Assembly: GCA_963718565.1 (NCBI GenBank)
Contig: OY970364.1
Span: 64,001-128,000, forward strand
Reading direction: 5' to 3'
Source of the DNA: an uncultured Verrucomicrobiae bacterium
GTDB lineage: Bacteria; Chlamydiota; Chlamydiia; Chlamydiales; Rhabdochlamydiaceae
DNA length: 64,000 bases
Shown: piece after piece, positions 23,090 to 53,230 of the stretch
How the letters are laid out: each line of letters begins with the position of its first letter
Position numbering within the stretch: position 1 is the first letter of the stretch
Program-made: the position numbers and the translations under genes
The notes under the pieces: model-generated
What the model saw: only the letters and a program-made list of their open reading frames with translations
Databases searched by the model: none
Told to the model about the DNA's origin: nothing

Positions 23090-24390
23090 CAGGGCCATTT
23101 AACTAAAATGTTTTGACATTTTCGAACAGAAAAATGTTGCCAAAATTCCCTTTAAGTACCCACCACCGAAAGTTGCTGCGCGCCTTACGGAGGCGAGCCC
23201 CCTTTCTGGATCTACAACTGCAGCCATGTTCATAGCCAAACGTCGAAACAACCCCATGTTCTCCGCACTATTCCCTCTATCCGTCAATGCATAATCCTCT
23301 TCAAAAATCACATCAGCTACCCAATGGCATTTGTTTTCTATGCTCCAGTGCTGTCGGGTCCATTTAGCAAAATCTTTGGCAGATGCTCGACGACTCGAAA
23401 TATATAGCCGTCTAAATACCTCATTGGCAGTAGATCCAAGTTTTTGCCTCGTGGACCTTACTTCGATGAGACAGACTAAGTTTTTCCATTTGCCCGCATT
23501 TGGCAACCAGTCCAGGTCCTCGACGACTCGTACTTCTCGAATGTCGATTCGACCATGGCCTTTATCTACTTCCTGGTGAAACGAATGGGGGACTTCCTCC
23601 CATTCGACTGCGTGAGCTTGATCAAAAAAATTCTCCATTTCAGCGCACAGCGTTGGCTGGTTGTCCTTAACAGCCAGCAGATAATCTGCCTTCGCATCAA
23701 CGATTTGTTCTGCCGATTCGGCTACGGTGAAATGTGCATCTCCTGAAATAATCGCCCCCTCTACATTCACTTGCTCCAAAATGATTGGTAACGTGCTCTT
23801 TTCGACTGTTTTATTTGGGACCTTTTCCACGGCAAGACATAATCGATCCTCCGCTGCGAATAGCTCCACTACGTGTGTGACACCGCCTAGGAAATTTGCG
23901 CCTTTCATCCGTTTACCATCGATCGCCAATAGCTGATCGCGCAATGAAGCAGGAATTTTGCTGAACCATTTTTGCAAGTAGTGCTTGAGCGCACCAGGGG
24001 GTGTTTTCACTAAAAACCACCAGAGCGCTCCATGGGAAGGTGCTGAGAGCTCCTCACCTAGCAGAGAAGAAAACCACTCCTCCTGCAGAGAAACATATTC
24101 AGCGATTTCCTCAATCGTATTGCATCCACAAAAGAATCCGCAGAGAATAACAAGAGTCAAATACCAAACTGGATATAAGACACGTTTTTGATTACGTCGA
24201 TAATCAGGGAAATCTGCAAACTCTCCCTTGACGGTTTCCGCGAATACACGGGCATCAAAATTCTTACTAGCTTCTAGGATTGTGGCGTCGATTGGCTTAC
24301 GGCGTGACATAATAGGTCCTCCAAATTTGAGGAATTTATTATGCCATCTTAGCTGATCTGGTATCAAAAATTTTTAGTTAAATGGCCCTG
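23090..24390 (-). mobile_element. ISAs1-family IS, copy 1 (1301 bp)
   Basis: 19-bp perfect TIR cagggccatttaactaaaa; 10-bp TSD tccgtttatg at 23080-89 and 24391-400. Confidence 0.95.
23099..24310 (-). CDS. ISAs1-family transposase
   Basis: Motifs AIDGK, SGDAHF, DYLLAVKDNQPTL, DKGHGRID and RQHWSIENKCHW.AD..F.ED. Confidence 0.93.
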   Translation of the reverse strand: MSRRKPIDATILEASKNFDARVFAETVKGEFADFPDYRRNQKRVLYPVWYLTLVILCGFFCGCNTIEEIAEYVSLQEEWFSSLLGEELSAPSHGALWWFLVKTPPGALKHYLQKWFSKIPASLRDQLLAIDGKRMKGANFLGGVTHVVELFAAEDRLCLAVEKVPNKTVEKSTLPIILEQVNVEGAIISGDAHFTVAESAEQIVDAKADYLLAVKDNQPTLCAEMENFFDQAHAVEWEEVPHSFHQEVDKGHGRIDIREVRVVEDLDWLPNAGKWKNLVCLIEVRSTRQKLGSTANEVFRRLYISSRRASAKDFAKWTRQHWSIENKCHWVADVIFEEDYALTDRGNSAENMGLFRRLAMNMAAVVDPERGLASVRRAATFGGGYLKGILATFFCSKMSKHFS

Positions 24391-25281
24391 TCCGTTTATG
24401 ATTATCAAAGAGAATACGATGCCAAGCAAAAAACTATCAATGGTCCACATTTGGGAAAGGCCTCCAAGTTAACCCTAGACCAAGAAGATGCGCTGAGGAG
24501 ACATTTGAGTCAAATAACGTATCTCAAAATGAGCAAAATTTGTCTCTACGTTCTAGACGCATATCAAGTGAAATACACTGTGGCTGGTATGACAAATTGG
24601 TTGAAGAGGCATGGATTTGTTTATAAACATCCAATCAAAGTACCAGGAAAGCTCGATCCCGAAAAACAAGCTGCGTTCCTTAAAAAATACAATGAATTGA
24701 AAGCCGGTCTCCAAGAAGGCGAGAAAATTTTCTTTGGAGATGCTGTACACCCTGAGTATCAGAGCCAGTCTGTGGCTGGGTGGATCCTAAAAAACGAAAT
24801 AAAGACATTAGGAACAACCGCTAAGCAAGAGCGATTGCATTTTATTGGTGCCATTGAATTGACTGCAATGCAAGTCGTGACGAAGGAATATAGCACTGTG
24901 GATGCTGCAAGTGCGGTCGATTTTCTCCAAACGTTAGCGGCTAATACAGATGCAAAAAAAATCCACTTAATCTTAGACAACGGCAGATCAAACAAGAATA
25001 AGGAAGTGCAAAAATATTTGGATAGCCAAACCAAAATTCAAATACACTACTTACCTCCGTATTCCCCAAATTTGAATGCTATTGAGCGTTTATGGAAAGT
25101 TATGAGAGAGTGTGTTACTTATAATACACTGTATTCAAAATTCAATGAATTTACTGAGAAAATTAGAGATTTTTTCAACACTGGCGTTATTAATTTAAAA
25201 GACATGCTGAAAAAGCGAATTAACGACAATTTCCAAACAATTGAACTCAATCCTCTCCAGACTTCAATTTTCTAGAGTATA

Positions 25282-36358: not shown

Positions 36359-36781
36359 ATGAACAAGTTTTTAAGCATTCAGGAAGCAGCAAAATGTTTG
36401 GGAGTTTCTCCACAAACACTCCGCCGATGGGAAAGACACAAGAAAATCGTTTCCTGTCATCGCATACAGGGCAGCCAACGCCGCTATAGTCTCACTCAGT
36501 TACAGCCATTTAATTGCGGAGATAAAACCTCTGATCGTCTAACTGTTGCCTACGCAAGAGTTTCGAGTCATGATCAAAAAGAAGATTTACAACGACAAGT
36601 CCATATGTTAGAAATTTACTGCTTTGCAAAAGGATGGGTGTTTTCGGTAACCAAAGACCTCGGTTCCGGGATGAACTATAATAAACGTGGGCTAAAACAA
36701 CTGCTTGAGCAAAATGGTTCAAGAAGCCATAAGAACAAACAGCTTTTGGCCAACCTTCAAAATGCGGTCGCCAATGTCTAA
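36359..36781 (+). pseudogene. tnpA: IS607 serine transposase TnpA with an internal in-frame deletion
   Basis: Motifs EAAKCLGVS.QTLRRW, YARVSSHDQKEDL and DLGSGMNY are present, then the sequence jumps to GSRS. The DRL.R segment is missing; 140 aa. Confidence 0.8.
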
Positions 36782-38240
36782 AGAGAATCTGGTTCTTAAG
36801 CTGAGAATTGAAGCAGACCCTCAAACAATTTCTGAGCTCGATGGGCAATCGCGGATCTGTAATTGGCTTTATAATCATCTGCTAGAAAAAAGCCTGGAAC
36901 TCAAGCGGGAATTTATCCATTCCGGCAACCCGGAGGCATCAAAGACCCTCTATACAGAAAGAGGACTCAGAAATGAACTTCCAAAACTCAAGGAAGAGCA
37001 CCCCTTTCTAAAAGTCGTCCACTCTTCTCCATTAAAAAATACCGCTTTGAGACTTAGTGAAGCAATCCGGGTTCATCAAAAATCAAAAAAAGGAAAACGG
37101 AAAGGCAAACAGATGGGTTGGCCCAAATTTCGGGCCTGGAAACGGGACTGGTTTTCTCTTTTTTACGATGAACCAGAAAAAGGTTTCAAGATTCACGGCA
37201 AAGCCTTGTTCCTCTCCCTTGGAATGGGCCAGGACCGCAAGCGCCGCTTCCTCACTCTCGAATTACCCGAAGCACATCTCCTCAAAGACAAAACCCCACG
37301 CAACTTGCGCATTATCTCCGAACTGGGAACCTACTATGCCATTTTTACCATTCAGAAAGAACTCCCCATCCGAAAACCCATTTCTAAAATCCTCGCACTC
37401 GATCCCAATCACAAAAATCTCGCCTATGGTGTTGACACAAGTGGAACAGCCATTGAGATTGCATCTCCTCACTGGCTCAAAACTTACGATAAACGCCTGG
37501 ACGAACTAAAAAGTAAAAGAGACCGCTGTGATAAAAAATCTAAAAAATTCCATGTTCTGGATGAAAAAGGCAATCCCACAAGAAAAGAATTCCATCTTCC
37601 TTCCAGGCAATGGAGAAAATACGATCATGCCCTAAAAAGCGCACTGCGTAAACGCCGAGAACAGACCAAGACGTTTATGTTTACAAGCGCACATCGCCTT
37701 TTCCGAAATTACGACTGCATTGGAATCGGAGACTATACACCAAATGGCGAAGGCATTACTAAACCAATGCGGCGAGCGATGAATAACCGATCCTTGATTG
37801 GACGTTGGAAAAACACCCTCTCCTGGGTAGCTCGAAAATCGGGAAAAACCTTTATTGAATTCGACGAGAAAGGGACAACCCGGACCTGTAGCCACTGCCT
37901 GCGGATTGAAGAGCGGGGAATCCCTGTCTCATTGAGACAATGGCAATGTCCACAGTGCAAGACCGTTCACATTCGCGACGAGAATGCCGCAATTAATGGC
38001 TTGAGAAAGATCTTGCGAGATCTTTCAGCAAAAAATGAAGGAGGATATCCTTCAATAGTGTCTGGCTCAGACCTCGCTTTTATCCAAAAGCGATGGGCCT
38101 GGTGTGTTTTGCCTAATGGTGTACATGTGACACCGTGGGGGCAAGACAGCAAAGCAATTTGCAGCACCAGGAAATTAAACCGAGGGCATGATAGCCCTCG
38201 ATCAAAAGTTGATAATTTGGTTATATATGATCAGGTTTGA
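36774..38240 (+). CDS. tnpB: RNA-guided endonuclease TnpB (rearranged RuvC type)
   Basis: N-terminal KLRI…CNWLYN; GWPKFR; RuvC-I LALDP; zinc finger CSHC/CPQC; RuvC-III RDENAAIN. Confidence 0.9.
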   Translation: MSKENLVLKLRIEADPQTISELDGQSRICNWLYNHLLEKSLELKREFIHSGNPEASKTLYTERGLRNELPKLKEEHPFLKVVHSSPLKNTALRLSEAIRVHQKSKKGKRKGKQMGWPKFRAWKRDWFSLFYDEPEKGFKIHGKALFLSLGMGQDRKRRFLTLELPEAHLLKDKTPRNLRIISELGTYYAIFTIQKELPIRKPISKILALDPNHKNLAYGVDTSGTAIEIASPHWLKTYDKRLDELKSKRDRCDKKSKKFHVLDEKGNPTRKEFHLPSRQWRKYDHALKSALRKRREQTKTFMFTSAHRLFRNYDCIGIGDYTPNGEGITKPMRRAMNNRSLIGRWKNTLSWVARKSGKTFIEFDEKGTTRTCSHCLRIEERGIPVSLRQWQCPQCKTVHIRDENAAINGLRKILRDLSAKNEGGYPSIVSGSDLAFIQKRWAWCVLPNGVHVTPWGQDSKAICSTRKLNRGHDSPRSKVDNLVIYDQV

Positions 38241-46919: not shown

Positions 46920-47425
46920 TCACTTGTTGCCCTGATGGTATTCAAGCAATTCGTATCCCCAAGGGAGATCCATGCTGTAGAAAGTTCCATCTTCAGACTG
47001 CAATTCTATCTTCGCGATGCCTTTCCGCAATCCAATCACTTCCGGAGCAAGCTCACAACTTATCGGCCCTTGCAGATCTTGGGAGAGAATTTCCTTTCCG
47101 GAATGTGAGATCAGTTTATATTTCTCCTGCTTTCCAATGCCACAAATATCAAGATCATAGAGTGTGTTGCCGGGTTTTGCGCAAAGTAGAGTTCCTTTCG
47201 CTAAAAGATCTCCCGACTTGTTCTTCAAAAACAGAGGGCGGGGATAGAAGACAATTTCTCTGTATGCGTCTTTGGCAGATAGACGGATCGTTATCTTTTC
47301 TCCTGGCAAATAGCCGCGAGCGCTTACCACAATGCCTGCCGCCATGTTGCAATTTTTACATTTCAGGATACTTTCAGAAGAGAGCTGTGAATAAGGATAA
47401 TAGCGATCGGGAAGCGATTGTAATA
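46920..47425 (-). pseudogene. Hypothetical protein, 5' end cut by IS256
   Basis: ORF runs into the IS256 left TIR with no native start. Confidence 0.5.
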
Positions 47426-48912
47426 GGTAGTGTAACATTGTTTCTGTAAATTCAATTTTTCAAGAAAGTGTTTTGATAATTGAAAAAAAAGTTTGAGATC
47501 ACATTCTCTTAAGTTTAGACAAACAAACAAAAGGAGAGGTTATGATCTCAAACAGCACATATGCCCCTGTAATCAACGCATTAGTGGAAGAACTCGGACA
47601 ACAAGGCTTACACGGCCTCAGCGAACTCTTGAGCAGGCTCTTCAATGAATTAATGAAGACCGAACGAGAGCAGGTTCTTCAAGCTGGTCCATATGAGCGG
47701 ACAGAGGCTAGAAAAGGTTATGCTAATGGTTTTAAAGATAAAACGGTACAGACTCGTTTTGGAAAATTAGAACTCCAGGTTCCACAAACTCGAGAGATTG
47801 CATTCTACCCACAGTGCTTAGAGAAGGGAGAGCGATCAGAAAGGGCATTAAAATTGGCAATTGCAGAAATGTATGTTCAGGGTGTTTCAACGCGGCGAAT
47901 AGCTCCAATTGCAAAAGAGCTGTGCGGCTTTGATTTGAGTTCAACCCAAGTTTCTCGGGTTGCAATGATTCTCGATGAGGAGCTTGAAAAATTCCGCAGG
48001 AGAAATTTAGGTCACATCGTTTATCTTTATCTCGATGCCGATTATCAAAAGGTGAGACACGATGGACACGTCAGAGACATTGCAGTACTAAAAGCTGTTG
48101 GAGTGAACAAAGATGGATTTCGAGAAGTGCTTGGCATTTCATGCAGTTTATCTGAGGCCGAAGTGCATTGGAGGACATTCCTGGAAGACTTACTCTCTCG
48201 AGGATTAAGAGGAGTAGAAATGGTGATTAGCGATGATCACTCTGGGCTAAAAGCTGCACTAAGGGCAGTGCTTCCATCGGTTCCTTGGCAGCGCTGTCTT
48301 TTTCATCTTGCTCAAAACGCTCAAAGCTATGTCCCAAACACGGCAATGCGAGGAGAAATTGCACAAGCGGTACGAGATGTTTATCAAGCCTTGAATCAAC
48401 AAGAGGCTGAAAAACGAGTTAAGGAAACAGTGCAAAGATATGAAAAAAGAGCACCCAAATTTTGCAATTGGTTTGAAATCAATGCAATTGAGGCAATGAC
48501 ATTTTATCATCGGCCAAGAAGGCACTGGAAACAGATAAGGACTGTTAATATTGTTGAAAGGCTTAATGGAGAGATTAAGCGGCGAACAAGAGTAGCAAGA
48601 TTATTTCCCAATGAAGCGTCTTGTGAAAGATTGGTCACTGCCGTGGTATCTGAGATACACGATGAATGGATAAGCGGAAAGAGGTATTTGACGTTAGAAT
48701 AAAATATTGAGGAAAACAACGCTAACACCGATGGAACACTTTTTGTTTAGGGGTGAATTATCTGGCATAAAAAAGTGTCAGATTCGAAAAATTTTTCCTC
48801 AAAAGCAAAGTAAAAAGCCGAAGCGTCTCTGACGCGAGAGGCCGTTTTTATAGTAAGAAATTGACCTAAGTGAAGAAGATTTCAGATTTTACAGAAAAAT
48901 TGTTGCTTGATC
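47426..48912 (+). mobile_element. IS256-family element
   Basis: Imperfect ~25-bp TIRs (ggtagtgtaacattgtttctgtaaa / tttacagaaaaattgttgcttgatc); no clean TSD. Confidence 0.85.
47542..48702 (+). CDS. IS256-family transposase
   Basis: Motifs MYVQGVSTR, YLDA, ISDDH.GL, WQRC.FH and ERLNGEIKRRT…FPN. Confidence 0.95.
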   Translation: MISNSTYAPVINALVEELGQQGLHGLSELLSRLFNELMKTEREQVLQAGPYERTEARKGYANGFKDKTVQTRFGKLELQVPQTREIAFYPQCLEKGERSERALKLAIAEMYVQGVSTRRIAPIAKELCGFDLSSTQVSRVAMILDEELEKFRRRNLGHIVYLYLDADYQKVRHDGHVRDIAVLKAVGVNKDGFREVLGISCSLSEAEVHWRTFLEDLLSRGLRGVEMVISDDHSGLKAALRAVLPSVPWQRCLFHLAQNAQSYVPNTAMRGEIAQAVRDVYQALNQQEAEKRVKETVQRYEKRAPKFCNWFEINAIEAMTFYHRPRRHWKQIRTVNIVERLNGEIKRRTRVARLFPNEASCERLVTAVVSEIHDEWISGKRYLTLE

Positions 48913-48973
48913 GAAATACGGCAACATTATAGCCACAAGTTGCTATAAAATAAACCCAAAACTCGGGTTATTA

Positions 48974-49716
48974 CAGGGTATAGGAAATTAAGAAGAATTT
49001 TTTAAACTTAGTAAGGGTTTTTAAAGTGTCTCTTTTTCACATGTCGGGGACAAAGCACTGCGTGTCCTTTATCCCCTGCTGGCCCCCTTGGGACTCATCT
49101 CGCTTTGCCAAATCGCGTGCTCGTCGGGGGGCCGTGCAAAGCACTGATCCCCCCACGCGCTGACCGCGCTCTCCTGCGCTGCGATTTTGCTTTGCGATCT
49201 GAGTCCATCGGCTGCTCATGCGCTCACTTCCCGCCCTGGCTTCGCCCTTTCGGGCGGGTCCCTTTTCGCGTCGACTCGCAGAGCAATTCTGAATGCAAAA
49301 CAACCCCGGTCTTCTCTTATCAACAGAATGGATGCTTTTTTTGACTCTTTTAAAGAGTGGGCATATCAATGATAAGTGTAAAAAGCCTGATGTTTGATTT
49401 AAGAATGGCTCTGCGAGTCGACGCGAAAAGGGACCCGCCCGAAAAGGCGGAGCTAGGGCGGGAGTGAGCGCATGAGCAGCCGATGGACTCAGATCGCAAA
49501 GCAAAATCGCAGCGCAGGAGAGCGCGGTCAGCGCGTGGGGGGATCAGTGCTTTGCACGGCCCCTCGACGAGCACGCGATTTGGCAAAGCGAGCTGAGTCT
49601 CAAGGGGCCAGCAGGGGACATTGGACACGAAGTGCTGTGTCCCCGACATGTGAAAAAGAAGCACTTTAAAAACTTTTAGTGAATTTAAAAAAATCTTCTT
49701 AATTTCCTGCGCCCTG
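48974..49716. mobile_element. 743-bp non-autonomous fold-back element
   Basis: Arms ~48974-49290 and ~49402-49716 are reverse complements; ends CAGGG/CCCTG; 10-bp TSD cgggttatta at 48964-73 and 49717-26. Confidence 0.9.
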
Positions 49717-49734
49717 CGGGTTATTAATGCCGTT

Positions 49735-49967
49735 GCAGAAAATCGATGATTTTGGCACCTGTTGCCAGAACCCGCATAGCTGGTTCGGTTGGCGGCGGCG
49801 AAAGCATACTTGGATAAGTGGCTGCGAAGACACGAGAAGGTCCGGGGAACCTTCGTAAGTAGCAAAGCAGGTGAGCGAAGAGCGAACCGGGGTCGAAGGC
49901 AGCCGCCGCCAAGGCGATAGGTGCCAAAAGCGCGATTTTATGCGGTGAGGAGTTTTGCAATTCCCTC
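49735..49967. mobile_element. Family B MITE, long copy lacking its left TIR
   Basis: Right end gaggagttttgcaattccctc; interior matches the 27352 and 32519 copies. Confidence 0.8.
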
Positions 49968-49991
49968 AGCATCTTTGGTGCTCCCCAAATT

Positions 49992-51206
49992 TCAAGAATG
50001 GTTAGCTTTTTGCGACATGGCCCACCATAAAACTGCGGAAGCCAGTAGACATTGTATTAAAATGGATAGTGAAAAGGGAAAAGATACCTTGTCAGGAAAA
50101 TGGGACGCAATATTTGTTGCCAGAGCACCCCCCAAATAAGCAAGAAATCCCCATAAGGCACTTGCGCTTCCTGCAAGATGAGGAAAAATCGAAAGACTAA
50201 GACCGATGCAATTCGTAAAAATAAAGGCGATCCCAAAAAAGAGTAAACAAAGCGGGAGAACAATTACAGAAATACTAAGTATGTTATTTGCTGCTAGAAT
50301 TACCATCCCAGATGAAACAACCAAGATCCAAGAAACTCCCATTTTTATTACCCTATTTTGTGGAAAATGATGGATCAAGCGAATATTAAGCGAAGAACCT
50401 AAAAAATAACCTCCGGAAATGAGCAACATCATCCACCCAAAGACTACAGGTGAAAGTCCCAGAACTTTTTGCAGTAAAAAAGGACCCACTACATAGAACG
50501 AGGACAAAATACCATAGAGAAAAAAATCCGCGAGGACATATCCCATAAAAGCTTGGCTCAAAAGTAAGGTGAGATAATTTTTGCCTATTACAACGGGATG
50601 GATCGATTGGCGTTTTGCAGGGTCTTTTGTTTCAGGTAAAAAGAAAAAAGCCCATATCCAAATCATGAAGACAAATATAGCGAGGAAAAGAAAGTTGACT
50701 CTCCATCCCCACCACTCTTCAATATACCCACCTAGCACTGGAGCGACAACAGGAGAGAGCACCCACAAGATTCCTAAAAAAGCAACTTTCTTGGCAAGTT
50801 CTGTACCGTGATAAAGATCTCTTAAAATCGCCCTACAAAGTACATTTGCTGATCCGATGCCTATTCCTTGAATCAACCGCATGATCAGCAGGAATTCTAT
50901 AGAATGAGCAAGATAAGCTCCTACTGCACCACCGATAAATATTAGTAGACCTATGAGAAGAACAATTCTTCTCCCGAAGCGCTCTGAAATGGGTCCATAA
51001 AACAGCTGAGAGAAAGCAAAACTGACTAAAAAATATGTTAAGGTTTGTTGTACAATGCTTTTTGTAGTATTTAGATCCAATACCATTGAAGGTAATGAAG
51101 GCAAGTAAATATCGATTGCAAATTGCCCCAAGGTCACTAACATTAATGCTAGAAAAGCGACCATTCCTTTATTCATTTTTACCTTTGAGACGAATTGCTT
51201 TTTCAA
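49992..51206 (-). CDS. Bcr/CflA-family multidrug efflux MFS transporter
   Basis: Motifs IDIYLPSLP, YGPISERFGRR and RLIQGIG. Start could be the ATG at 51176. Confidence 0.9.
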   Translation of the reverse strand: MKKQFVSKVKMNKGMVAFLALMLVTLGQFAIDIYLPSLPSMVLDLNTTKSIVQQTLTYFLVSFAFSQLFYGPISERFGRRIVLLIGLLIFIGGAVGAYLAHSIEFLLIMRLIQGIGIGSANVLCRAILRDLYHGTELAKKVAFLGILWVLSPVVAPVLGGYIEEWWGWRVNFLFLAIFVFMIWIWAFFFLPETKDPAKRQSIHPVVIGKNYLTLLLSQAFMGYVLADFFLYGILSSFYVVGPFLLQKVLGLSPVVFGWMMLLISGGYFLGSSLNIRLIHHFPQNRVIKMGVSWILVVSSGMVILAANNILSISVIVLPLCLLFFGIAFIFTNCIGLSLSIFPHLAGSASALWGFLAYLGGALATNIASHFPDKVSFPFSLSILIQCLLASAVLWWAMSQKANHS

Positions 51207-51262
51207 GGCTATGTAAAACAGTATTTATAGTCTTTCTTTTTTTTAAAAAACTCAAAAGTATT

Positions 51263-51314
51263 TGGCAGAGTCGCAGCCTGTCAAAATTCACCAAACCTAA
51301 CCGCGCGCCGTATA
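51263..51314. repeat. Family C MITE end fragment
   Basis: Reverse complement resembles 55468-55518. Confidence 0.7.
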
Positions 51315-51929
51315 AAGTCTGGTCAGTTTTAAAATTATTTATTGTCAATACGGCATTTCTATTTTGCTTCTACAAATTACATTTTTAGTTTGCTTTTAAT
51401 ATTTAATTTAAGTTATAATCAATAGTAGATTAATTAATTTAATAATGGTAATTAAGATGTCGATTCAGCAAAAAACAAACAATATTAATGTTTATGATGT
51501 CGTGTCATTGTACGATATCCTGATGAAAAATGAATCTTCCGAAATCAGAAGCACATGTGAAGGAAATGGAAGGCAGATCACCACTTGGTTGGAAACCTTA
51601 TCCTCACCGGATGCCATTCCTAAAACTGATGCAAAAGAAATCACTCGACTGTTCCTCGAGAGATTTAATACAGAGGCACTACCACAATTGCATGGCAATA
51701 TTTATAATCGATGGGTCTTTACCCATCACGTCGAGCATAAAGATATAGAATTCGGCAAGCATTATCTCGAATCACATCCTGAAAGTCCTGTGGTATTAAA
51801 AGCGATTGCTGATTTTCTTCTCGTACATTTAGTCGCTTCATTATCAAGTGCATACAAACAAGAAGATTATGAACGAGCTCAATTAATTTACTCCATTTTA
51901 CCTAAAAAGATCCAGGATAGGATTGAGGG

Positions 51930-53230
51930 CAGGGCCATTTAACTAAAATGTTTTGACATTTTCGAACAGAAAAATGTTGCCAAAATTCCCTTTAAGTACC
52001 CACCACCGAAAGTTGCTGCGCGCCTTACGGAGGCGAGCCCCCTTTCTGGATCTACAACTGCAGCCATGTTCATAGCCAAACGTCGAAACAACCCCATGTT
52101 CTCCGCACTATTCCCTCTATCCGTCAATGCATAATCCTCTTCAAAAATCACATCAGCTACCCAATGGCATTTGTTTTCTATGCTCCAGTGCTGTCGGGTC
52201 CATTTAGCAAAATCTTTGGCAGATGCTCGACGACTCGAAATATATAGCCGTCTAAATACCTCATTGGCAGTAGATCCAAGTTTTTGCCTCGTGGACCTTA
52301 CTTCGATGAGACAGACTAAGTTTTTCCATTTGCCCGCATTTGGCAACCAGTCCAGGTCCTCGACGACTCGTACTTCTCGAATGTCGATTCGACCATGGCC
52401 TTTATCTACTTCCTGGTGAAACGAATGGGGGACTTCCTCCCATTCGACTGCGTGAGCTTGATCAAAAAAATTCTCCATTTCAGCGCACAGCGTTGGCTGG
52501 TTGTCCTTAACAGCCAGCAGATAATCTGCCTTCGCATCAACGATTTGTTCTGCCGATTCGGCTACGGTGAAATGTGCATCTCCTGAAATAATCGCCCCCT
52601 CTACATTCACTTGCTCCAAAATGATTGGTAACGTGCTCTTTTCGACTGTTTTATTTGGGACCTTTTCCACGGCAAGACATAATCGATCCTCCGCTGCGAA
52701 TAGCTCCACTACGTGTGTGACACCGCCTAGGAAATTTGCGCCTTTCATCCGTTTACCATCGATCGCCAATAGCTGATCGCGCAATGAAGCAGGAATTTTG
52801 CTGAACCATTTTTGCAAGTAGTGCTTGAGCGCACCAGGGGGTGTTTTCACTAAAAACCACCAGAGCGCTCCATGGGAAGGTGCTGAGAGCTCCTCACCTA
52901 GCAGAGAAGAAAACCACTCCTCCTGCAGAGAAACATATTCAGCGATTTCCTCAATCGTATTGCATCCACAAAAGAATCCGCAGAGAATAACAAGAGTCAA
53001 ATACCAAACTGGATATAAGACACGTTTTTGATTACGTCGATAATCAGGGAAATCTGCAAACTCTCCCTTGACGGTTTCCGCGAATACACGGGCATCAAAA
53101 TTCTTACTAGCTTCTAGGATTGTGGCGTCGATTGGCTTACGGCGTGACATAATAGGTCCTCCAAATTTGAGGAATTTATTATGCCATCTTAGCTGATCTG
53201 GTATCAAAAATTTTTAGTTAAATGGCCCTG
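51930..53230 (-). mobile_element. ISAs1-family IS, copy 2 (1301 bp)
   Basis: Same TIRs and identical transposase translation as copy 1; TSD ggattgaggg at 51920-29 and 53231-40. Confidence 0.95.
51939..53150 (-). CDS. ISAs1-family transposase
   Basis: Translation identical to 23099-24310. Confidence 0.93.
   Translation of the reverse strand: MSRRKPIDATILEASKNFDARVFAETVKGEFADFPDYRRNQKRVLYPVWYLTLVILCGFFCGCNTIEEIAEYVSLQEEWFSSLLGEELSAPSHGALWWFLVKTPPGALKHYLQKWFSKIPASLRDQLLAIDGKRMKGANFLGGVTHVVELFAAEDRLCLAVEKVPNKTVEKSTLPIILEQVNVEGAIISGDAHFTVAESAEQIVDAKADYLLAVKDNQPTLCAEMENFFDQAHAVEWEEVPHSFHQEVDKGHGRIDIREVRVVEDLDWLPNAGKWKNLVCLIEVRSTRQKLGSTANEVFRRLYISSRRASAKDFAKWTRQHWSIENKCHWVADVIFEEDYALTDRGNSAENMGLFRRLAMNMAAVVDPERGLASVRRAATFGGGYLKGILATFFCSKMSKHFS

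Follow-up and report, generated by a model that had tools for sequence, protein, structure and literature searches.

A 743-bp fold-back element with ISAs1-type ends in a Rhabdochlamydiaceae genome resembles an unusually long miniature inverted-repeat transposable element and carries a conserved arm module

The DNA considered here is a stretch of 64,000 nucleotides (hereafter, the window) from an uncultured Verrucomicrobiae bacterium that GTDB places in the Rhabdochlamydiaceae, within the Chlamydiales (assembly GCA_963718565.1, contig OY970364.1, positions 64,001 to 128,000); it is part of a single 2.28-Mb contig representing the whole assembly (95% complete). At window positions 48974–49716 (+ strand) lies a 743-bp fold-back element with CAGGG...CCCTG ends, which matches itself at 100% and further copies elsewhere in the genome. 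The perfect 10-bp direct repeat CGGGTTATTA stands on both flanks (48964–48973 and 49717–49726), and was identified as a target-site duplication by repeat search, a survey of duplications, and a census of element ends. The terminal ∼33 nucleotides are alike at both ends: comparison of ends and terminal-pattern sites defines a left terminal inverted repeat, CAGGGTATAGGAAATTAAGAAGAATTTTTTAAA (48974–49006, + strand), with an ISAs1-type terminus, and a right terminal inverted repeat (49684–49716) reading CAGGGCGCAGGAAATTAAGAAGATTTTTTTAAA on the − strand.

Nearly the whole element is one hairpin. A left arm of 326 nt (48974–49299, + strand) and a right arm of 324 nt (49393–49716, − strand), delimited by inverted-repeat search and arm alignment, enclose an AT-rich loop of 93 nt (49300–49392) that differs in the elements of relatives and is not conserved. 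The repeat search resolves the arms into a collinear series of inverted-repeat blocks, three in number, of 113 nt (86%), 148 nt (97%) and 71 nt (90%), and end-to-end alignment yields 298 identical columns of 326 (91%), with two gap columns; the longest perfect complementarity spans 101 bp (49128–49228 vs. 49463–49563). In each arm an AT-rich outer segment of 55 nt (27–29% GC) is followed by a GC-rich core (60%), giving 52% for the element as a whole, with 38% in the loop and 43% across the window. Folded as single-stranded DNA (ssDNA), the element reaches −395.6 kcal/mol, compared with a mean of −119.9 for shuffled sequences (s.d. 4.3, n = 20; z = −64). An initial annotation, made from the letters alone, had described this hairpin with its AT-rich outer arms and GC-rich core, the exact position of its perfectly paired stretch, and the flanking 10-bp repeat, all of which hold; it was right that the arms are long, at an estimated ∼315 bp slightly below their measured length, and its loop of ∼110 nt was too large. 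Its statement that no credible open reading frame (ORF) is present also stands: none of four arm-crossing frames (155, 171, 79 and 65 aa) has a Pfam match at E≤0.01.

This is a real, multi-copy, non-autonomous, mobile fold-back element, best classed as a long MITE (miniature inverted-repeat transposable element). Searching the source genome with the element by BLAST returned 94 alignments, corresponding to 37 places once merged. Three copies in different surroundings are near full length, at genome positions 112974 (the window copy), 903840 and 2255834; the second (903840–904575) is 736 bp long, 94% identical, and has TGCGGCTGCG on both flanks, while the third, 98% identical, is interrupted at element position 714 by an IS701-type insertion sequence (IS). 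Twelve copies, ranging from 46 to 2337 bp, retain both ends, and eight of these have matching 10-bp duplications (at least nine of ten positions), six of them perfect and all different in sequence, a level of agreement that arises by chance in 22 of 200,000 random 10-mer pairs. The prediction that other copies with different duplications would exist is borne out by these places. Partial copies elsewhere are 98–100% identical to the window copy, which indicates that the last moves were recent. Every copy retains the same 9% difference between left and right arms (for the copy at 903840, identity is 94.5% in one orientation against 83.8% when reversed); because this polarity is kept throughout, the palindrome predates the copies and was copied as a whole element. 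A terminal 21-mer pattern occurs at 41 sites in the source genome; three of 18 congeners have a single two-mismatch site, and no site occurs in the remaining 15.

CAGGG ends form part of the description of the ISAs1 family in ISfinder, and two ISAs1 copies lie in the window. The copy at 51930–53230 (− strand, 1301 bp, ends CAGGGCCATTTAACTAAAA, duplication GGATTGAGGG) encodes a 422-aa transposase (51939–53207) that matches NF033564 at 273.8 bits (cut-off 70), making this copy a candidate transposase source; the other, at 23090–24390 (− strand), has the duplication TCCGTTTATG according to the end and duplication survey. In both, CAGGG...CCCTG ends are flanked by a perfect 10-bp duplication, as the initial annotation observed when it pointed out that the fold-back element shares these features. 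Genome-wide, the ISAs1 family comprises 13 copies at ∼100% identity, with a perfect 10-bp duplication in 11 of the 12 copies shown; intact copies of the 422-aa transposase number 11, all at 100% identity and including one match from residue 5, and tblastn at E≤10 finds no second ISAs1-type transposase in this genome. A census of all CAGGG...CCCTG intervals of 40–2500 bp whose flanking 10-mers agree in at least nine of ten positions identified 21 intervals, consisting of 11 ISAs1 copies, 10 members of the fold-back family, and nothing else; the reversed-motif control gave 0. Among the 10 family intervals, four have a single right end in common, each combined with a different one of four tandem left ends, and one is a 56-bp mini-element at genome position 2078393. 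The confinement of this end and duplication signature to ISAs1 and the fold-back family is the strongest argument for a shared transposition chemistry, and makes mobilisation of the family in trans by the resident ISAs1 transposase likely.

Other ISs are abundant in the same genome. An IS1634-type element (608-aa transposase, 19 ORF copies) has CCCAAGTTCGC ends and 4-bp flanks, IS630 (16 ORF copies) has TACTCT ends and TA flanks, and an IS701-type element (12 ORF copies) has ends different from both; the remaining mobile-element genes belong to IS256, IS3, IS66-type and TnpB. Two arrangements of ISAs1 itself may be recorded here. At genome positions 1131537–1134149, a tandem ISAs1 pair lies 10 bp apart, with the 10-mer TCTATTTATG before, between and after the two copies; tandem IS dimers are transposition intermediates in some IS families. 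The first ISAs1 copy of the window adjoins a truncated IS630 (23090–25275; ORF 24382–25275), and as the IS630 alignment ends exactly at the ISAs1 end, ISAs1 has apparently inserted into IS630.

Each arm contains a structured, GC-rich, conserved module, with the left copy at 49080–49289 (+ strand) and the inverted right copy at 49403–49611 (− strand) scoring 213.9 and 212.6 bits, respectively, against covariance model R1. Of 24 further genomes in the family-level group of the host, 16 have BLAST matches to the element core (approximately positions 52–692), as do none of 16 genomes of other families, and the outer ends are matched in two congeners only; across the genomes compared, core presence does not track ISAs1 gene presence. 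Twenty-four arms from 14 genomes can be aligned, revealing conserved blocks (ACATGTCGGG, CTTGAGACTCATCTCGCTTTGCCAAATCGCGTGCTCG, CTGCGCTGCGATTTTGCTTTGCGATCTGAGTCC, CGGCTGCTCGTGCGCTCAC and CTCGCGTCGACTCGCAGAGCC) separated by hairpins whose stems have been wholly replaced with pairing retained. The module as a whole measures ∼250 nt, with four covarying hairpins amid the conserved blocks, and the arms of relatives differ by non-multiples of three over the same columns (210, 205, 197 and 191 nt). In the structure tested (RNAalifold, 45 pairs), 95.7% of cells are paired, vs. 89.4% in shuffles (reached by 0 of 500) and 34–52% in controls in which partners were slid, and 17 pairs have changed on both sides, vs. 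9.7 in shuffles (again reached by 0 of 500). A caution on these values is that the structure was derived from the same alignment, in which many rows are related and the arms of one element are non-independent; in addition, template-switch correction of quasi-palindromes could imitate compensatory change without selection. Single arms fold better than shuffles on both strands (z = −3.5 on one, −5.3 on the other), and the two module strands fold about equally, each selecting its own G-U pairs, with no strand preference in a test of G-U vs. A-C. The conserved fold belongs to each arm alone, not to the large hairpin. This fold within each arm had been missed in the initial annotation.

Among 150 genomes of the order, 12 have matches to the covariance model (206 positions), covering at least six further family-level groups; in the source genome the model finds nothing beyond the BLAST places. 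No Rfam match at E≤1 was obtained in window positions 47000–52000 or in four loci of relatives. A 22-mer of the module is present in 22 stretches of public metagenome-assembled genomes, labelled by their submitters as Chlamydiales, Parachlamydiales, Simkaniaceae, Parachlamydiaceae, Rhabdochlamydia or Chlamydiia, with some labelled Verrucomicrobia, Acidobacteriota, Planctomycetaceae or Granulosicoccaceae; viral contigs gave 0 matches to it.

The module occurs in several different frames. In one genome (G071) single modules lie in ∼380-bp TA-flanked elements ending GTACTCTGTAACAG, in another (G041) ∼516-bp fold-backs are TA-flanked and end GACATGTCGGG in four of five copies, and in a third (G019) the module lies between other outer arms. 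The IS630 transposase of the source genome, used as query, was not found in G071 or G041, so with this query the TA-flanked vehicles there are without a partner. In the source genome, a ‘family B’ consists of single unpaired arm modules, ∼84% identical to the arms but with other flanks. Sites of this family include genome positions 1008836–1009158, 1284084 onward, and 1440504–1440826; its inner flank, AATCTCAAGGTT, also adjoins the module in G019, and its outer flank is a small hairpin, GGAGGCATTATTTCAATGCCT. Genome G016 harbors, at one locus (L022, contig C22, ∼1250–2470), a ∼1.2-kb palindrome centred on the same module pair and lacking CAGGG ends, whose outer arms consist of tandem copies (three on the left, four on the right) of a 106–141-bp sub-repeat. 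An autonomous parent for the arms was sought in G019, where a fold-back with 309-nt arms (L031/L145) encloses a 75-aa DDE_Tnp_4-like fragment. Of 12 loci inspected among the relatives of this fragment, the G019 locus alone has the module and 11 are without it; two genomes rich in this transposase (G075 and G164) have no module match, and no DDE_Tnp_4 was found in the source genome. We read the fragment as an unrelated IS piece that probably became nested in the loop.

In experiments reported for Escherichia coli (PMC3315005), a 246-bp interrupted palindrome folds into a hairpin in the lagging strand and is cleaved by the SbcCD nuclease at each replication. Neither subunit is present above its cut-off in the source genome, where the single SbcD match (26.8 bits, cut-off 77.65) is a generic phosphoesterase and the two SbcC matches, to the N-terminal P-loop, are RecN and RecF. 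SbcD scores above cut-off in eight of 80 genomes of the order and in none of four from the family of the host. The initial annotation had attributed persistence of the palindrome to either a structured RNA/ssDNA role or a host lacking hairpin nucleases such as SbcCD. The latter suggestion agrees with these searches; the former is not needed, given the imperfect arms (91%), the 93-nt spacer, the missing SbcCD, and the visible decay of the family.

Decay is apparent throughout the family, whose shorter members (46–423 bp) look like central deletions. Short two-ended forms of 216, 175, 169, 168 and 167 bp retain positions 1 to ∼79–96 and ∼625–670 to 743, with deletion junctions that fall within the first hairpin of the arms. 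This hairpin being a small palindrome in its own right, the copies of it in the left and right arms amount to direct repeats, and slippage or recombination between them may be the route by which the element centre is deleted. Further copies are interrupted by IS701-type and IS1634-type insertions.

Several individual copies deserve description. The smallest are a 56-bp mini-element (genome 2078393–2078448) with the perfect duplication GAATCAGGTT and a right end unlike that of the family, and a 46-bp mini-element (748155–748200) consisting of two ends only, without a duplication; these may show the minimal ends still able to transpose. A composite copy (1847649–1849985), flanked by ACTGATTTGA, begins with three tandem 174-bp left ends (178-bp period) and continues with element positions 1–351, an IS701-type insertion (363-aa ORF), and positions 536–743. 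The flank preceding each of its units repeats the internal arm motif AAAGCACTGAT, which suggests slippage amplification between these repeats. Truncated copies at genome positions 1944605, 2002949 and 1499591 all stop at one shared repeat starting GGTGCGCCCGGTATGGGCAATTACTAGTCGG, probably a further IS for which the GC-rich arms serve as a target or as a place of recombination.

Taken together, these observations lead us to propose the following mechanism. An ISAs1-family transposase, most likely from the 13-copy resident ISAs1, would bind the ∼30-bp CAGGG-starting terminal repeats, cleave the element ends, and insert the element with a 10-bp staggered cut of the target, producing the flanking CGGGTTATTA. 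Each arm would be a copy, inverted relative to the other, of an older ∼250-nt GC-rich module that is not ISAs1 sequence. Tolerance of the large palindrome would follow from its imperfection, its 93-nt loop, and the lack of SbcCD in the host, and the element would decay through central deletions, giving the 46–423-bp forms, and through IS insertions. As a whole explanation, an ISAs1-moved fold-back MITE whose arms derive from an older module is in our judgment rather probable. Within it, the anatomy, copy number, duplications and polarity of the element, the exclusive end and duplication signature, the conservation and covariation of the module, and the lack of SbcCD are established by the data, while we infer the origin of the palindrome, the deletion route, any function of the module, and trans-mobilisation by ISAs1.

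A number of results weigh against parts of this proposal, beginning with the ends. Over 26 positions, element and ISAs1 ends share 11–14 ungapped identities, compared with 7–11 for the ends of unrelated ISs (n = 2); gapped identity rises to 18 of 26, but in AT-rich sequence, and beyond CAGGG(C) the similarity is weak, consisting of scattered A/T positions, a fading that the initial annotation had already remarked upon. The ISAs1 repeat is found on no mini-element, all 25 of its exact matches lying within the 13 IS copies. The initial annotation had looked to an ISAs1 with terminal repeats like those of the element; its view of a non-autonomous mobile element is upheld by the multiple copies, their varied duplications, and the lack of a family-matching ORF, while an ISAs1 with matching ends was found neither in the source genome nor among the three chlamydial ISAs1 types examined. 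The same ISAs1 is present in genome G016, where its ends are identical, its protein is 91% identical and its matches number 24, together with one two-mismatch match to the element terminus; since G016 has this ISAs1 without the fold-back family, ISAs1 alone is insufficient to produce the family. Four of the 12 two-ended copies have no duplication. In addition, the contigs of four public DNA runs, whose gaps prove nothing and which may include the source sample, contain none that spans the whole palindrome, and those listed leave out the right junction of the window copy; a joint skipping the element (an empty site) was likewise not seen in them. Finally, a clean empty site for the copy at 903840 was not obtained in congeners: at the orthologous site in G004 the flanking genes lie 375 bp apart rather than 890 bp and the element is absent, but the region holds another small inverted-repeat element and its left side is unalignable, so this is not a clean empty site.

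Three alternatives must be weighed against this background. Fold-back chimeras are a known artefact of long reads (PMC12338684), and with no contig of the four runs spanning the entire element, the palindrome might be imagined as an assembly or long-read artefact absent from cellular DNA. Such a reading is close to refuted: the genome has three near full-length copies in different flanks; the arms agree at 91% and pass on their left/right differences from copy to copy; the 10-bp duplication around the element is precise, and short derivatives have the same ends; similar fold-backs exist in other genomes; and in two runs from public soil metagenomes, short-read contigs take in the loop and the inner end of each arm (X1, 49295–49437; X3, 49281–49431), with the left junction covered by a contig from a freshwater run of a different study (X5, 48885–49069). 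More serious is the possibility that the family was moved by another ISAs1-family transposase, with ends matching CAGGGYRYAGGAAATTAAG, that has been lost or was never resident but supplied after horizontal transfer, the resident ISAs1 not recognising these ends and the burst now being over. The low identity between the ends of the element and those of the resident ISAs1 speaks for this, as does the presence in G016 of the same ISAs1 without the family. So does genome G017, which has degenerate copies with the same outer end and where the source-genome query did not recover this ISAs1 transposase. Chlamydial ISAs1 ends also vary, falling into three types (beginning CAGGGCCATTTAAC or CAGGGGCTTTTC, or CAGGGTCTTTTGATTAAAAAGA), and in gapped comparison with the element the CAGGGTCTTTTGATTAAAAAGA-type ends score 7–9, those of the resident ISAs1 3–9. 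We nevertheless think it unlikely, for no second ISAs1-type gene was found at E≤10, copies 98–100% identical imply recent moves at a time when 13 identical ISAs1 copies also spread, and the duplication has the 10-bp length produced by the resident ISAs1, compared with 9 bp for the second ISAs1 type of G016 (two readable copies).

The third alternative concerns what is carried rather than what moves it, and is compatible with movement by ISAs1: the ∼250-nt module could be a functional structured RNA or ssDNA element carried by various transposon ends, which might stabilise or terminate transcripts, act as a scaffold for protein binding, or help the element to spread. Blocks conserved across families of the order, replaced stems that still pair, and single arms that outfold their shuffles would all be expected of such an element, as would its occurrence within elements whose ends are of three or more kinds and as single unpaired modules in family B. 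The lack of an Rfam match, of a strand preference, and of a promoter-like site in or beside the element point the other way, and its multi-copy, patchy distribution (12 of 150 genomes) is like that of selfish DNA; moreover, nested insertion of, or recombination between, MITEs could yield such a mosaic without function. We give this alternative only a small chance. A bolder formulation, that the arm represents an undescribed class of structured RNA/ssDNA module of environmental chlamydiae, selected for its fold and riding several unrelated mini-transposons, is one we consider doubtful, if somewhat less remote. If it were true, the arm module would parallel in bacteria the structured-RNA cores found in eukaryotic short interspersed nuclear elements (SINEs), and the 743-bp fold-back would be one vehicle among others, formed when one end together with its module was duplicated in inverted orientation.

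The window copy lies between two genes. Upstream is an IS256 transposase gene (47542–48702, + strand), and on the other side a gene for a major facilitator superfamily (MFS) transporter (MFS_1; 49992–51206, − strand), whose stop lies 265 bp from the element. Downstream of the MFS gene, a terminator-like hairpin, AACCCGAGTTTTGGGTT, with a T-run is found by pattern match at 48953–48969 (− strand). The element was inserted in the 3′ flank of this hairpin and now stands between it and the MFS gene; with the two parted in this way, transcripts of the transporter gene may now read into the element. A pattern scan found no promoter-like sites in or beside it, and among the public runs listed for this sequence none is an RNA run. 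Elsewhere in the window, a 547-aa ORF (2939–4582, − strand) contains a eukaryote-type RasGAP domain (PF00616, 47.1 bits); eukaryote-type domains are expected among effectors of intracellular bacteria. A TnpB-like gene (36705–38240, + strand; 511 aa) with a Cas12f1-like TNB domain has ∼10 copies in the genome.

The fold-back family would provide the poorly studied ISAs1 family with its first natural series of substrates, from 743 down to 46 bp, showing which ends are sufficient. It also offers a natural case of a 0.7-kb near-palindrome present in several copies on a chromosome without SbcCD, where decay products can inform on the tolerance and trimming of palindromes outside E. coli. The covarying module of the arms, which recurs across the order in transposon frames of different kinds, is a candidate new structured nucleic-acid motif, and is the part most worth following. 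In a literature search, neither MITEs with ISAs1-type ends nor MITEs of chlamydiae were found described, and none of 16 papers that contain both ‘ISAs1’ and ‘MITE’ has the two together in title or abstract; a review of bacterial MITEs (PMC10969869) contains 0 occurrences of ‘ISAs1’ or ‘Chlamydia’. In their main text, two Rhabdochlamydia genome papers discuss IS expansion and do not treat palindromes or MITE transposons, although their supplements may list repeats; one of them has the word ‘mite’ seven times, meaning the arthropod in each passage displayed.

Comparison with known systems places the element between several categories. With ISAs1-family ISs it shares CAGGG...CCCTG termini and a 10-bp duplication, both measured on the resident copies, and a loose pattern of CAGGG, about eight bases, and then TTAA or TAAAA; unlike them it has no transposase gene, an unrelated interior, and terminal repeats whose likeness is limited to CAGGG(C) and a scatter of A/T positions. 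Eukaryotic Foldback (FB) transposons have very long inverted arms and a short middle. The element resembles them in this respect, and the palindrome at L022 of G016 adds tandem outer sub-repeats, but the likeness is one of shape only: the host is bacterial, the ends are ISAs1-type, the duplication is 10 bp, and there is no sequence relation. REPIN/RAYT systems and Rickettsia palindromic elements are likewise dispersed hairpin-forming repeats, as here in an obligate intracellular bacterium; the present element differs from them in that the window copy is intergenic, the arm lengths vary by non-multiples of three, and the duplications are 10 bp, and no Y1/RAYT transposase (PF01797) was matched in the source genome, a search positive in six of 14 genomes used as control. 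The closest likeness is to bacterial MITEs such as QMITE1 and QMITE2 of Coxiella, Correia and Chunjie, as outlined in the above review (PMC10969869). Like these, the element has terminal inverted repeats, target-site duplications whose match declines with the age of the copy, no transposase gene, a gradient of size and identity within the family, presumed mobilisation in trans by an IS, and a transcript that would form a stable stem-loop (PMC10969869). It shows the terminal inverted repeats, duplications of fixed length, many copies, and lack of a transposase gene that define a MITE; miniature size and AT-richness are not seen in the full-length form (743 bp, 52% GC), although the 46–423-bp derivatives fit the size. 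Unlike QMITE1 (∼400 bp) and Chunjie (235 bp), for which the review passages give these lengths (PMC10969869), the full-length element is nearly all one hairpin, with 326-nt arms, its body is GC-rich rather than AT-rich (60% in a 43% window), and its arm module is older than, and independent of, its ends. The element behaves as an unusual fold-back MITE, and provides a lead to an undescribed structured module.

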